From a virus: a DNA stretch of 52,030 nt. The stretch is from positions 1 to 52,030 of IMG/VR virus record IMGVR_UViG_3300018063_000006. The stretch is one strand, 5' to 3'. The number at the start of each line of letters is the position of its first letter. Position 1 is the first letter of the stretch. The notes under the pieces were generated by a model. It saw nothing but the letters and a program-made list of their open reading frames with translations, had not been told where the DNA came from and searched no databases. A program made the position numbers and the translations under genes. Below are positions 7,110-52,030 of the stretch, piece by piece.

Positions 7110-7441
7110 TGACGATTCGTCAAGCTGTTCTGAAGTCTGCGAGCCTCCTCGATCGGCTCAAGCCGGGCTGGTGGAAGCCGCGGCGCTTCTCGCTTCGCCG
7201 ACTAGCCTTGACGAGCTGCACCGATTGCATCCTAGGGCAGGTGTTCGAGCGTGAAGCTCTCAGGATCAACAAGGCCGAAGGTCACGACTGCTGTACCGGA
7301 TTCGACTTTGGTCTTTACCGTTCCGAAGGCCCGAAGTTACCAAGCGGCACCGGCGAACATGGTACGTTCTCTAACCCCGATAGCGAGCCTGAATGGCGCC
7401 GTCTGATCGAGCGTCGCCGGCAACGAGCGAAGGTCGCCTGA
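7109..7441 (+). CDS. Hypothetical protein (110 aa)
   Basis: TGATG overlap. In frame with ORF 6926..7441. Confidence 0.55.
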   Translation: MTIRQAVLKSASLLDRLKPGWWKPRRFSLRRLALTSCTDCILGQVFEREALRINKAEGHDCCTGFDFGLYRSEGPKLPSGTGEHGTFSNPDSEPEWRRLIERRRQRAKVA

Positions 7442-7824
7442 TGTTCCTTCCGGTTGACACCATCGACGGCGCCGCGCCGCCGCTTTCGGCACTTGCGGGC
7501 GCGCGCACGCTGAGCGAAGCCGAGCGCAGGCTGATGGCCGATGTGCTGATGCAAGCAGTTCAGGAGGCTAGGGCGAGTGCGGGCAGTGCGGCAACAGTAG
7601 CGCATCAGCTACGGCAGGCGGATCGTGACGCCGCTCGCGCGTGGCTGCGGGCGCAGCCGGGCTTCACGGCGCGGGAGTGCTGCGAGGCGCTGGGTGTCGA
7701 GTACGAGGCGATGATGGCAAAGCTGGAAGCTGAGTGGCGCCAGACGAAGCCGAAGCCGGGGCCGAAGGTGAAGGAACGCGCAGCGTCGCGCGGAACGCGG
7801 ACGCGGCTAGTGGTGGTGAAGTGA
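7441..7824 (+). CDS. Hypothetical protein (127 aa)
   Basis: TGATG overlap. In frame with ORF 7393..7824. Confidence 0.55.
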   Translation: MFLPVDTIDGAAPPLSALAGARTLSEAERRLMADVLMQAVQEARASAGSAATVAHQLRQADRDAARAWLRAQPGFTARECCEALGVEYEAMMAKLEAEWRQTKPKPGPKVKERAASRGTRTRLVVVK

Positions 7825-7925
7825 TGGAGTGCGCGATGCCCTACGAACTGATGCTGATAGAGGGGGCGCAGCTTCTCACCTTGCTGGTCCTCGTCGTGTG
7901 GACCTTTTTCAGGGGCCAGCGATGA
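7824..7925 (+). CDS. Small membrane protein (33 aa)
   Basis: TGATG overlap. Hydrophobic LLTLLVLVVWTFF. Confidence 0.35.
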   Translation: MECAMPYELMLIEGAQLLTLLVLVVWTFFRGQR

Positions 7926-8230
7926 GCGCACCGAAGCGCAAGGCAGCACCGCTCCCGCGCCTCACTGAAGCGCAAGCGTGGCGCGTGATCGCAATAATGT
8001 TCAAACGCCCAAATGGCGTGTGTTACGCGATCCATAGCTTGGCAGAATCCGGCGTCATCAGCGAGGTGATGTGCGATACCCTAAACGCTCGAGTTGATGC
8101 GGAGTTCAAGCGGCTAGAGAAGTCGCCGAATAGCCCGTTCCTGTGGCCGCTTATTATGGCATCCTCAGACTCACAGCGGATGGCGTTCGCGGCCAAGCAG
8201 GCGCAGCGCGCGGCAAGGCGGCTCAAGTGA
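7922..8230 (+). CDS. Hypothetical protein (102 aa)
   Basis: ATGA overlap. In frame with ORF 7829..8230. Confidence 0.55.
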   Translation: MSAPKRKAAPLPRLTEAQAWRVIAIMFKRPNGVCYAIHSLAESGVISEVMCDTLNARVDAEFKRLEKSPNSPFLWPLIMASSDSQRMAFAAKQAQRAARRLK

Positions 8231-13413: not shown

Positions 13414-13634
13414 TCTTCGACCATCAACGCTTCTTCGAGCAAGTTACCGTCTTCATCTTCTGCCAGCGGCTACAAATCGTCTTCGACCTCGCGACCGATG
13501 AACGTTTCGCTGCGCAGGTGTTTCGTGCGTTCAGCGCGACGGCGCGCTTGCGGCTGATCGCGAAGATACTGGCGTTGCGAGTGGTGAAGCCGAGCGGAAG
13601 CGAGCCGCCGGCTTCGCTGGCGGTGGTGCAGTAG
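13410..13634 (+). CDS. Hypothetical protein (74 aa)
   Basis: ATGA overlap. High GC3 by hand count. Confidence 0.5.
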   Translation: MIFDHQRFFEQVTVFIFCQRLQIVFDLATDERFAAQVFRAFSATARLRLIAKILALRVVKPSGSEPPASLAVVQ

Positions 13635-15628
13635 TGCAATCGCGTGACGACGGCAGCACCCGCGCTCCGATCGCGATGGTGGGCGAGGCGTACGGGCATT
13701 GGGAAGGTATATACGACCGCCCGTTCGTCGGCCCGTCGTACAATGACAAGTTGCAGCCGTGGTGGAGAGACGCTGGCCTGTCGCGCGACATGTTCTACAT
13801 CACGAACGCTTGGGACCAGGGCCAGCCGCAGCCACACATCGACCGAATCCCTGAAAGCGAGCTGCGCGCTGCAATGGATCGCCTGCACGATCGGCTCGCC
13901 ACACTTGAAGGTCCCGATGGCAACGGCCCCATTGTCATAGTGCCCACTGGCAACGTGGCGCTCTACGCCTTGACGGGCAAAGGCAAAGTCAGCTTCCACT
14001 CGCGCGACGGCCGCTGGGAGCGACCGGGCATTCAGTCGTGGCGCGGCAGCATCTTGCAGTACGAAGACCGCAAGGGCCGAAGGATCAAGGTCATCCCGAC
14101 AGTGCATCCGGCGGCGACGTTTCGGCAACCGGGGCTCGAGTGGGTGTGCGCGACTGACTGGCGGCGGATCGCCGGCGACGTCGCGTTTCGTGAGCTGCGC
14201 CTGCCTGATCGCACACACATGATCGCGCCCAACATCAGCGAGGCGATCGAGTGGATGCGGTGGACGCGGAGCTTGGCGGCGAAATGGGCGGCTGGCGCCG
14301 GCGGCGACCTCGCGCTCAACGGCCGCCTCGCGTGCAGCCTCGACGTCGAGACGCCGAAGCGGACTGAGTATGCGACGAAGGAAGGCGTGAGCGCATCGAC
14401 TGCACCAGGCACGAAGTGTCGGATGTGCGGGCATACGCTGCGCTGGCACGAGAAGCCGGAGAGTGACCCGGAACTAGGCGCGCTCGTTGGTGTAAAGTTG
14501 TCGATTCCGTGTCGTGGGCCTCACAAGAAGGGATGTGGTCATGACTGCCGTAAGTTCTCGCCGCCGCTTCTCAAACCCAAGCGCATCAAAATCAGCGAAG
14601 AAGCCTATCTCGGCTGCATCGGCTACGCTTGGGACCCGAAGATCAGCCTGACGATCCCAACGACGCTCGCGTACTGGCAGGACCCCGCTGCGTGGGCGCT
14701 CGTCAAGGCCGAGCTAGTTGCCTTCCACGCCGACCCGAACATCGACTTTGGCGGGCAGAACCAGCCCTTCGACGCCTGGTGGTGCGCGACCGAAGGCATG
14801 CCGTTTCGGATCGCGTGGGACTTAATGAACATGCATCGCGTTCGGGTGCCGTTCAGCGAGTGGCACGATCTTGCGTTTCAGGGATCGCTCTATACGCGCC
14901 AACCGTACTGGAAGGACGAAGCCAAGGACCCCGATTCGGTTCAGCGGTACGCGCATAACAGCGAAGCCCTGTGGACCTACAACGGCATCGACAACTGCGT
15001 TCAGCGGGAGCTGCTGTCGAAGCATCTCGAGGCGCTGCGCGAAGCCGGGCGGCTCGAATATTACGAGCAGCTCGAGGCGTCGATGTTCGCGCCGCTTCTC
15101 GAGCTGAGCCTCACCGGGATTCGCGTTGACGCAAAGGGCCGCAGCGAGGAGCTAGCCCGGACGAAGGTCGAAGCCGGCGACGTCGCGAAGCAGATCAACG
15201 AGGCCGCGGGGACGAAGCTCGTTGCGAAGACGGCTGTCAGCAACGCGAAGATGAAGATGTTTCTCTATAGCGCCGAAGGGCTGCGGTTGCCTGAGCAGTA
15301 CACGAAGAACGCGAAGAAAGAGAAGGTCGTCACCGTCAACGTCGTCGCGATCAAGCGGCTGATGGAGCGCTTCCCAGGGCACGAGAAGCTGCACACTGTT
15401 GGGCGGTTCGTGCTGCGCCATCGTCGGCTGCTGAAGATCGCCGCGTTCCTGAGCGAGTCGCGCGTATCGGCCGACGGGCGCGTGTACGGGATGTTCAAGC
15501 AAGACACGATTCTCGGGCGGCTGTCGTGCGAGTCGTTGCCGAATGACGAAGGCGACAACCTTCAGAATCAGGATCGGAAGCTGCGTAAGTATTTCGTAGC
15601 GGATACGAACGAGGAGAGTGTGGCATGA
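13634..15628 (+). CDS. polA: Family-A DNA polymerase, N-terminal fragment: UDG-like domain + 3'-5' exonuclease + fingers/thumb up to the pre-motif-A segment
   Basis: UDG family-4-like motifs: VGEAYG..E, PFVGPS, TVHPAA. Exonuclease motifs: SLDVET, NQPFDAWW, YNGIDN. Polymerase motifs: GRLS, NLQN, RKYFVAD. Confidence 0.85.
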   Translation: MQSRDDGSTRAPIAMVGEAYGHWEGIYDRPFVGPSYNDKLQPWWRDAGLSRDMFYITNAWDQGQPQPHIDRIPESELRAAMDRLHDRLATLEGPDGNGPIVIVPTGNVALYALTGKGKVSFHSRDGRWERPGIQSWRGSILQYEDRKGRRIKVIPTVHPAATFRQPGLEWVCATDWRRIAGDVAFRELRLPDRTHMIAPNISEAIEWMRWTRSLAAKWAAGAGGDLALNGRLACSLDVETPKRTEYATKEGVSASTAPGTKCRMCGHTLRWHEKPESDPELGALVGVKLSIPCRGPHKKGCGHDCRKFSPPLLKPKRIKISEEAYLGCIGYAWDPKISLTIPTTLAYWQDPAAWALVKAELVAFHADPNIDFGGQNQPFDAWWCATEGMPFRIAWDLMNMHRVRVPFSEWHDLAFQGSLYTRQPYWKDEAKDPDSVQRYAHNSEALWTYNGIDNCVQRELLSKHLEALREAGRLEYYEQLEASMFAPLLELSLTGIRVDAKGRSEELARTKVEAGDVAKQINEAAGTKLVAKTAVSNAKMKMFLYSAEGLRLPEQYTKNAKKEKVVTVNVVAIKRLMERFPGHEKLHTVGRFVLRHRRLLKIAAFLSESRVSADGRVYGMFKQDTILGRLSCESLPNDEGDNLQNQDRKLRKYFVADTNEESVA

Positions 15629-15783
15629 GCCACGTTTGCTTCACTGAAACGTGGTGGGTGGATGTCGCGCATTACGAGCGAGTTCTGATCCATGACTTCT
15701 GGTGTCAGGTAGCCATCGCAGCGATGTGCAAGCTGATGTTCCTCGAGACGGCCATTCAGTATTTCGACGAGGTACAACTGTGA
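15625..15783 (+). CDS. 52-aa ORF inside the polA interruption
   Basis: GAGGAG lies 8 nt upstream. ATGA overlap with the N-fragment stop and GTGA overlap with the C-fragment start. Lower GC than its surroundings. GC3 about 71% by hand. Confidence 0.45.
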   Translation: MSHVCFTETWWVDVAHYERVLIHDFWCQVAIAAMCKLMFLETAIQYFDEVQL

Positions 15784-16649
15784 TCCTCTTGTCGTGCGAC
15801 TTGTCGCAGATCGAGTCCCGCGTCGAACTGATGCTCGCTGCCGCGACACCTGAGTTCGAGGGCACCGACGTTGCCAAGGAGTGCGTACGCCTCGCGACCG
15901 CGCATCCCAGCGAGTTCGACATCCACACCTGGACCGCTGCGGTCGTGCTCGGCAAGAGCGAAGCCGACATCAGCGACATCGCGCCCGAAGGCGGCAGCGA
16001 GCCAAGCGATCGGCAGATCGGCAAGACAACCGGCCACGGCTTCATGCGCGGCATGGGCGCGCAGACGATGGCCGACGGGCTGCTGAAGATGGGATACGTC
16101 GTTACGCCGGAGACGTGCGCGCGGCGCCTCGGTCGACTTGCGGCGAAGCTGCCGGCGATCCCCGATGGCTACTTCCTCGACATCCGTCGGCAAGTCATGC
16201 GTTACCGCGGGCTGGCGACGACATGGGGCGCCATCTGGCGCTGCGACTATCGGCGACTCGAGGAGCATCTGTACGCAGTCGGGTATAGCTATCAGCCGCA
16301 GCGCGAGACGATTGACCTCATCAACCAAGAGGGCTTCTTGCCGCTTCGCAATGCGATTCACCTGCGTCGGCTCAACCCCGTCGAAGGTCGTCCCGCGCCG
16401 CGCATCCACATCCACGGCCACGACTCGCTGCTCATCAGCGTCCATCCTGATGATGCCTGGACCGTCGCTAACTTCATCGACCGCACGCTCGGCTGTTGCG
16501 AGCGGCGGTACGCTGCGGGGACGCTGCGGGTGCCGGTGACGTACGCGCTCGGAGAGACGTGGAAGGCCCGACACGAGCTGAATCGCCTTCCTGATAAGCG
16601 CGCGTTCCGCGACATGGCGTGGGACTGTGCAGCACACGCTACGAAGTAG
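15780..16649 (+). CDS. polA: Family-A DNA polymerase, C-terminal fragment (palm motifs A, B and C)
   Basis: Starts at GTG 15780. Motif A ILLSCDLSQIESRV, motif B RQIGKTTGHGFMRGMG, motif C HGHDSLL. Confidence 0.85.
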   Translation: MILLSCDLSQIESRVELMLAAATPEFEGTDVAKECVRLATAHPSEFDIHTWTAAVVLGKSEADISDIAPEGGSEPSDRQIGKTTGHGFMRGMGAQTMADGLLKMGYVVTPETCARRLGRLAAKLPAIPDGYFLDIRRQVMRYRGLATTWGAIWRCDYRRLEEHLYAVGYSYQPQRETIDLINQEGFLPLRNAIHLRRLNPVEGRPAPRIHIHGHDSLLISVHPDDAWTVANFIDRTLGCCERRYAAGTLRVPVTYALGETWKARHELNRLPDKRAFRDMAWDCAAHATK

Positions 16650-17677: not shown

Positions 17678-18493
17678 GTGGAACTTGTAACGCTCGACAC
17701 GGGCCGCGCGAAGTCTATCGTTGTCGCGCCCATTGGTGACTTTCAGTGGAGCGGCGCCAACGGCTCGACAGCGCAGGATCATCTCAAGCGCCACATTGAC
17801 CGCTGCCTCGCGCTCGACGCCTGGTTCCTCGGCATGGGCGATTACATCGACTTCATGTCGCCGAGCAACCGCGCACGGCAGAAGGCTGCGGGGCTGTACG
17901 ATACGGCCGAAGACGTACTCGAGGACGCAGCCGGCAGCCTGGTCAACGAAGTCTTTGAACGATTCCTGACGCCGACTGTAGGGCGCTGGATCGGCCTTCT
18001 CGAAGGCCATCACTTTTTCGAGTTCGGCGGCCGCACGAGCGACATGCTGCTCGCGGAGAAGCTGAAGACGAAGCATCTCGGATCGAGCTGTTTCGCGCAT
18101 CTAAAGCCGTGCGGTGTCACGCTTTGGGCGCACCACGGACAGGGCGGCGGCATGTTGCCAAGTGCCCCATTAAACAAGCTGTACCACGTCGCGGCGGGAC
18201 TTGAAGGTGCTGATGTATACCTGATGGGACACACAACTAAGGCATCCGCGGTGCGACTAAGTCGGCCACAACCTACGTGGGGCAAAACGTCTGACCTCGT
18301 GCATCGCGACATCTTCTTGGTGAACACGGGCGGCTTCAGCAAGTCGAGCGTGGTCGGGCACCGTCGCGGAAACATTCCGCGCGGCGACTATGCTGAGCAG
18401 GGAATGATGACGCCAAGTCCACTCAGGTCGCCGCTAGTATTAATCGACGCGGAGGCGAAGCGATTGGAAGATCGCGTGCAGGTGGAGCTGTGA
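17678..18493 (+). CDS. Calcineurin-like metallophosphoesterase (nuclease or phosphatase)
   Basis: Motif series IGDFQ, GMGDYID, EGHH, AHHG, MGHT. Confidence 0.7.
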   Translation: MELVTLDTGRAKSIVVAPIGDFQWSGANGSTAQDHLKRHIDRCLALDAWFLGMGDYIDFMSPSNRARQKAAGLYDTAEDVLEDAAGSLVNEVFERFLTPTVGRWIGLLEGHHFFEFGGRTSDMLLAEKLKTKHLGSSCFAHLKPCGVTLWAHHGQGGGMLPSAPLNKLYHVAAGLEGADVYLMGHTTKASAVRLSRPQPTWGKTSDLVHRDIFLVNTGGFSKSSVVGHRRGNIPRGDYAEQGMMTPSPLRSPLVLIDAEAKRLEDRVQVEL

Positions 18494-51907: not shown

Positions 51908-52030
51908 ACCTCCGCAAACTGCGAGGAGCGAGGCGCTGTAGCACTCCGCAAGAAGGCCCGAAAATTTGCTGCGCGCGTATACGAGGAGGTTCCCTGGCTT
52001 CTCACGAGCTGCCTGGGGTCTGGCCCCGGG
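51908..52030. repeat. Direct terminal repeat, right copy
   Basis: Identical to 1-123. Implies a 51,907-bp genome unit. Confidence 0.95.

Follow-up and report, generated by a model that had tools for sequence, protein, structure and literature searches.

A family-A DNA polymerase gene (polA) carried in two parts was analysed in the IMG/VR virus record IMGVR_UViG_3300018063_000006, of which positions 1 to 52,030 form the window, i.e. the whole stretch of DNA under analysis (52,030 nucleotides, nt). The locus consists of three cistrons in three different reading frames: an open reading frame (ORF) for the N-terminal part of the polymerase (N fragment), a mini-gene of 52 amino acids (aa) and an ORF for the C-terminal part (C fragment) (Table 1). 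The N fragment and the mini-ORF overlap by ATGA (15625-15628), the mini-ORF and the C fragment by GTGA (15780-15783), and the spacing from GTG 15620 to GTG 15780 is exactly 160 nt. The insert has a GC content of 53.0% compared to 62.8% and 65.1% in the flanks, and ranks within the lowest 1.3% of the 160-nt windows of the contig. This layout agrees with an earlier model-made description of the bare letters (the sequence-only reading), which had given the end of N at TGA 15628, the start of C at GTG 15780 with motif A followed by B and C, the lower-GC insert with its 52-aa ORF, GAGGAG Shine-Dalgarno sequence and two overlaps, and the 160-nt spacing.

Table 1. Features of the split polA locus, in window coordinates
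Feature	Position	Strand	Description
PolA N fragment	13634..15628	+	664 aa; ends ...KYFVADTNEESVA-TGA (also given as ...NLQNQDRKLRKYFVADTNEESVA and ...GRLSCESLPNDEGDNLQNQDRKLRKYFVADTNEESVA, each followed by the stop)
Mini-gene	15625..15783	+	52 aa; HDFWCQVAIxALL small-protein family
PolA C fragment	15780..16649	+	289 aa; GTG start, begins ILLSCDLSQIESRV
GAGGAG Shine-Dalgarno of mini-ORF	15611..15616	+	8 nt upstream of ATG 15625; read from sequence
GAGG Shine-Dalgarno of C fragment	15769..15772	+	7 nt upstream of GTG 15780; read from sequence
Hairpin GTGGC-ATGA-GCCAC	15620..15633	+	perfect 5 bp; seen in the sequence and in the minimum free energy fold

No promoter-like or terminator-like sites were found between the three cistrons. 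The loop of the hairpin is the stop/start overlap itself, formed by the TGA of the N fragment and the ATG of the mini-ORF. It may aid translational coupling and is statistically unremarkable.

Two halves of a family-A polymerase

The N fragment comprises a UDG family-4-like domain (Pfam match 6.1e-12), a Cys/His cluster, a 3'-5' exonuclease, the thumb and the first palm strand. Its residues 71-657 match positions 545-1003 of PHROG 17 'DNA polymerase' (2.7e-19), and the C fragment takes up positions 1007-1089 of the same profile, abutting the end of N at 1003. Residues 329-657 also align to Klenow chain 48-373, a weak match with an E-value of 0.42. For the C fragment alone, phmmer gave no match in the PDB and a profile was required, which aligned it to Taq residues 603-828 and Klenow chain 376-597 with E-values of 1e-24 to 2e-21. 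Pfam PF00476 scored 22.3 on the C fragment alone, under the gathering score of 34.3. When compared to contiguous homologues, the two halves abut without loss or overlap. In these contiguous loci, three codons of one and the same frame separate the equivalents of N residue 657 and C residue 2.

The C fragment contains the motif A strand ILLSCDLSQIE, with DLSQIE at residues 7-12, and the fingers with the motif B lysine (K82) and the motif C His-Asp pair (H214-D215). Residues D7, E12, K82, H214 and D215 do not vary among 19 C fragments or C-terminal regions, and the catalytic aspartate (Asp) of motif A aligns to Taq D610 and Klenow D705. In the N fragment, the exonuclease residues D237 and E239 (DVETP) and D380 are invariant among N fragments, and PF01612 was recorded for relatives. 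The alignments to Taq and Klenow therefore place the cut about six residues before the motif A Asp.

In the AlphaFold2 model of a contiguous homologue (P0035; mean confidence score pLDDT 92.3) the split site is a five-residue turn (577-581), which joins a short strand (575-576) to the motif A strand (582-588). Because the split falls in a beta-hairpin turn, the N and C chains should meet as neighbouring beta-strands and are expected to dock by strand pairing.

A cluster of invariant cysteines and histidines (C265, H267, H272, C293, C305 and C328) lies between the UDG-like and exonuclease domains (N residues 265-328, window 14426-14618). It is common to all 33 aligned N fragments. Classical PolA lacks this insertion, which probably binds zinc.

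The split across related phages

The junction was found in three assemblies from at least two samples, the present contig included. A contig of the Logan assembly of SRR7007152 (L079) is 100% identical over 6159 nt including the junction, and a 1625-nt contig from JGI sample 3300018079 (L080) contains the junction with one mismatch. Since the same junction occurs in independent assemblies, an assembly artefact, one of four explanations offered by the sequence-only reading, is excluded. A sequencing indel or a decaying pseudogene has nothing in its favour but the frame change itself and can practically be dismissed, with the sequence recovered three times, the catalytic residues intact and both halves 54-73% identical among members of the clade. 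The first and last 123 nt of the contig are exact copies of each other (1-123 = 51908-52030), and with this terminal overlap it is a complete phage genome of about 51.9 kb, circular or terminally redundant. The large ORFs that were scanned in it included no second DNA polymerase, which likewise speaks against a pseudogene.

A homologue search with the fused N+C sequence gave 247 homologues, the best 120 of which were used to judge the split state. Forty-nine of these 120 are N-only proteins, and all 49 end 16-34 residues past NLQN; in contiguous homologues, the motif A Asp is located at +24 or +25 from NLQN. A stand-alone C fragment with 58-73% identity follows downstream in every relative whose contig extends far enough, and its start agrees with that of the C fragment studied here in L075, L078, L077 and L083. 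The N-only homologues together with these C fragments point to an inherited split, with constraint acting on both halves. Distant relatives with 26-36% identity (L003-L011, L013, L015 and L020) are contiguous and in frame through the site. In a crude neighbour-joining tree the N-only sequences fall into two neighbouring blocks (37 and 10 sequences), with three contiguous sequences between them, which suggests one or two ancient fissions. The GenBank phage collection, searched at DNA and protein level, contained no close relatives, with only matches of 23-29% identity to the N fragment, and the C fragment, used as a single-protein query, matched nothing in IMG/VR.

The space between the halves differs widely, from 0 to 3 kb. 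In L075 (66% identity, the closest relative with the junction) and in L078 there is no gap and the N and C cistrons overlap by ATGA. The gap measures 77 nt in L082 and about 620 nt in L077, and is occupied by two unrelated small ORFs in L083. A UvrD-like helicase gene with one to three small ORFs is present in L071, L072, L073, L074, L076 and L097. The gap of L001 (1.5 kb) contains an Endonuclease_7 gene (5.7e-22), a gene for a PEMT/ICMT-like membrane protein and an HNH_3 endonuclease gene (1.1e-5). An alignment of polA from related genomes had been proposed in the sequence-only reading; it shows the insert to be absent in L075 and L078 and replaced by other cargo elsewhere. To describe the polymerase as 'cut by a 160-nt insert' is accordingly misleading: the cut predates the insert and does not depend on it, as shown by the two relatives without a gap and by those with up to 3 kb at the site.

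These relatives also bear on the idea that a recent mobile insertion interrupted an intact polA and left the 160 nt as a scar with a target-site duplication. The low GC content of the insert, the nuclease genes at the same site in L001 and the repeats at both edges would fit such an event. The repeats are present as described before: TGTG occurs at both edges, and AGTATTTCG/ACGAGG is found at 15588/15609 and again at 15758. However, the window holds 171 direct 9-mer repeats at a spacing of 20-250 nt, and the gapped local alignment score of the repeat was reached by 66 of 2000 dinucleotide shuffles (3.3%) and by 20 of 317 real window chunks (6.3%). The 6-mer ACGAGG contains GAGG, the Shine-Dalgarno sequence of both downstream cistrons. 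The junction duplication is at chance level. As the split also exists without the insert in relatives at 58-66% identity and in the 49 N-only homologues, and the insert codes for a member of a conserved family rather than debris, a recent insertion scar is very unlikely.

Even less probable is a single chain obtained by splicing the 160 nt from the RNA or by ribosomes skipping it (a GUG-to-GUG hop or a frameshift). The two GTG codons exactly 160 nt apart are in the right frames, which is trivially likely for a 3-mer, and the 5-bp hairpin stands at the putative take-off site. Against a hop, the take-off codon GTG 15620 is not directly followed by the stop, a GCA codon standing before TGA, and five other GTG triplets compete in the gap, the first of them 29 nt past the take-off codon. 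Against splicing, no relevant Rfam match was obtained over the region at E ≤ 10, and its fold was no better than that of shuffled sequences (z-score 0.04). Neither a group I nor a group II intron would fit into 160 nt. Both routes are further contradicted by the conserved protein encoded in the segment. Finally, since the gaps of the relatives extend from 0 to 3 kb with several genes, fusion cannot be the solution of the clade.

A split intein would be expected to end the N half with an N-intein of about 100 aa, and to open the C half with a C-intein ending in HN followed by C, S or T. Past the homologous FVAD, N continues for only seven residues, and in C six residues precede the motif A Asp. 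A split intein was rejected because there is no room for one in either half. No free-standing nuclease gene, as in a fission by a homing endonuclease, was found between the halves in this window, although such genes are present in L001.

Several further observations were made on this polymerase family. In another UDG-PolA lineage a second fission lies about 15 residues upstream, after NLQNLKR (L012 6839-7187, L014 5718-7045, L019 6860-7681, L027 6524-8179), with different cargo including a YAcAr/SLOG protein and a PAPS-reductase-like protein; it is independent of the fission before motif A. Inteins of 247-310 aa occupy at least six sites of the family (P0052, P0009, P0063, P0066, P0070, P0082, P0089 and P0092). 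That of P0052 is located inside motif A (DL|C...HN|SQAE), and P0009 is both N-only and intein-bearing, combining split and intein. Based on the cuts before motif A, the upstream cut and the P0052 intein, the stretch from NLQN to motif A is a site that mobile DNA targets repeatedly and where fission is tolerated. In L001, the PEMT/ICMT-like membrane methyltransferase gene (7422-8027) between the halves is flanked by Endonuclease VII and HNH genes and is unusual cargo for a replication module. The tails of the N-only proteins in relatives are acidic (D-T-G-D-E), with GGAGACGAGG-like codons doubling as the Shine-Dalgarno sequence of the next cistron; a dual constraint on these codons, by protein and by Shine-Dalgarno sequence, is possible.

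The genome also encodes a PD-(D/E)XK nuclease, an AAA_25 helicase and an SU10-type portal. Downstream of the helicase gene, an ORF of 271 aa (window 17678-18493) is kept in L071-L074, L077, L079 and L082 (271-274 aa). Its sole PHROG match is weak, to a DNA repair exonuclease (3.6e-4).

The 52-aa mini-gene and its family

In five relatives, tblastn with the mini-ORF matched small ORFs that directly precede PolA-C (E-values as low as 1e-4) and share the motif h-D-F-W-[CSA]-Q-V-A-I-x-A-L-L. A profile search extended the family to 18 proteins of 52-116 aa with a near-invariant HDFWCQVAIC, and HMMER, run exhaustively over 1.84 billion cluster representatives, yielded 49 only, all of 44-126 aa. No Pfam or PHROG entry was found for the family. 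A scan of IMG/VR with the family profile gave no confirmed locus, and a degenerate DNA pattern for the family matched in IMG/VR only an unrelated larger protein. The codons of the motif vary synonymously (CAC/CAT, TTC/TTT, TGC/TGT, GTG/GTA/GTC and others), and selection therefore acts on the protein and not on a DNA or RNA element. Judged by these sequence comparisons, the 52-aa ORF is a real gene of a rare, previously undescribed small-protein family.

AlphaFold2 prediction of the 52-aa protein alone, a check proposed in the sequence-only reading, returned one long helix (residues 14-51, pLDDT 80). Some members of the family have an N-terminal Cys-rich DUF5763-like part. Others carry two motifs, and tandem paralogues occur at several loci; two-motif members or tandem paralogues were seen in L076 (11175-11555), L095 (284-500) and P0128, the extra two-motif copy of L076 being located not in the polymerase gap but behind the AAA_25 helicase gene. 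Two other assignments were discarded: a transmembrane character is unsupported (maximum 19-residue Kyte-Doolittle mean of 1.43, lower than is usual for a membrane span, with other members more polar), and a Pfam match to the ZPR1 zinc ribbon (E 0.017) remained below the cut-off.

In the relatives, the mini-family gene is usually found between UvrD and PolA-C (L071-L074, L076 and L097), and members adjoin UvrD in L088, L092 and L097. The genome studied here has one copy without UvrD; neither a UvrD homologue nor a second copy of the family was found in the window. We read the mini-gene as an accessory from helicase-linked cargo, here retained or acquired alone. The polymerase most likely does not need the mini-protein, since the same split occurs in the closest relatives with N and C directly adjoining.

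A functional role of the mini-protein as a third part of the split polymerase or of the replisome is unlikely, though less so than a scar or a spliced or skipped segment. As a dedicated partner of the split replication machinery, the helix would act as a staple aiding N-C assembly or as an adaptor coupling to a UvrD-like helicase, and the gap would be a functional operon slot rather than a dumping ground. The position of the family immediately upstream of PolA-C or beside UvrD in the loci just named would suit such a role, as would the translational welding of the mini-ORF to both halves and the predicted single long helix, which would need a partner. On the other hand, L075, L078 and L082 share the split and have no such gene in the gap, the copy number varies from 0 to 4 with the L076 copy outside the gap, more distant split lineages (L083, MEP401) have unrelated small ORFs, and the mini-gene is present here despite the lack of UvrD.

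Comparison with known systems and significance

The sequence-only reading knew of no precedent for a split PolA of this type, which was incorrect. In the Methylophilales phages MEP401 and MEP402 (Zobellviridae), PolA is encoded as gp13 and gp15 with a 77-aa ORF, gp14, between them, for which the authors speculated about an intron (PMC10580990). According to the MEP401 record, gp13 ends in ...NLQNFDGEIKTLFLSRYGE before its stop and gp15 starts with MILNADAKALE.... The polymerase is cut at the same structural position as in the present phage, with a small ORF between the halves, but its PolA lineage is unrelated and lacks the UDG-like domain, the phage is an AT-rich marine podovirus, and the 77-aa ORF has no recognisable similarity to the 52-aa ORF. 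The T7-like cyanophages of clade B (S-TIP37-like) also have PolA in two ORFs, kept across the clade (PMC12695635; bioRxiv 10.1101/325100). There, however, the exonuclease domain is separated from the polymerase domain and the cut is not before motif A. A literature lead on phage AXL3 proved irrelevant.

The polymerase gene of SPO1 is interrupted by a self-splicing group I intron with the HNH endonuclease I-HmuI, and one frame is restored. It resembles the present gene in being interrupted by mobile DNA, but its intron leads to one chain, whereas here no intron was detected and two chains are predicted. The SPO1-type polymerase also combines a UDG-like domain with PolA (PMC3201878), as observed here.

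Among family-B polymerases, that of T4-related phages can be split into gp43A and gp43B with a homing endonuclease gene in the gap (Petrov et al. 2006, as cited in PMC2677866); on this point the sequence-only reading matches the literature cited there. The DNAP-N and DNAP-C of PhiKZ form a stable, active 1:1 complex; their genes are not adjacent and motif A is in the N subunit (PMC13648687). These systems likewise build a replicative polymerase from two genes, but with other break points, whereas both catalytic Asp residues are here located in C and the genes overlap their neighbours.

In phage Aeh1, nrdA is split by mobE, and according to the gene-breaking model a free-standing endonuclease invades an intein-less gene and is later lost (Dassa et al. 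2009, PMC2677866). The halves of such a broken gene work together. Here too an essential gene has been interrupted at a conserved site where no intein is present, and the gap of L001 contains Endonuclease VII and HNH genes. The present genome differs in having no nuclease at the site; the cargo has been replaced by helicase and small ORFs or lost. The model fits the history of the clade, not the present state of this genome.

Taken together, we consider it highly probable that this PolA consists of two polypeptides as the result of an ancient, inherited fission, with a gap of changing cargo and the mini-gene as an accessory. Of the four explanations offered by the sequence-only reading, a genuinely split PolA with a mini-gene is the one that the clade-wide split and the conserved mini-family support. 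The N polypeptide would bring the UDG-like domain, the proofreading exonuclease, the thumb and the last strand before motif A; C, starting six residues before the motif A Asp, would add the remaining palm and the fingers. Docking by strand pairing would yield a non-covalent heterodimer. The three cistrons are probably co-transcribed and translationally coupled via the ATGA and GTGA overlaps, each with its own Shine-Dalgarno sequence, which would hold N and C near equimolar. The fission is ancient, and a broad clade of uncultured phages with GC-rich genomes has inherited it. The break probably originated from a free-standing nuclease gene invading a conserved site, as the cargo of relatives suggests, and the gap has since served as a landing pad for changing cargo: here a lone gene of the 52-aa helical family, elsewhere this family together with a UvrD-like helicase gene.

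Three points weigh against parts of this interpretation. The crude neighbour-joining tree leaves open whether one or two fissions, or a re-fusion, took place. The nuclease invasion is deduced from relatives, and this genome has no nuclease at the site. The repeated place of the mini-family beside PolA-C could mean a polymerase-related role.

Neither the split PolA nor the mini-family overturns current understanding, and a PolA split at this site with an intervening small ORF was already known from MEP401 (PMC10580990). What is new is modest: clade-level evidence for the palm hairpin before motif A as a recurrent site of fission and cargo in UDG-PolA phages, and the definition of the HDFWCQVAI mini-protein family, which is small, rare and linked to replication modules. 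For metagenomic polA annotation, N-only and C-only ORFs should not be called pseudogenes; the split is also of use for PolA-based virus phylogenies and for the engineering of split polymerases. Evidently, the catalytic palm of a replicative family-A polymerase can be interrupted at the hairpin turn that precedes the motif A Asp by six residues. The polymerase cut in this way has long been maintained across a diverse phage clade, and the same turn is cut in the unrelated PolA lineage of MEP401.

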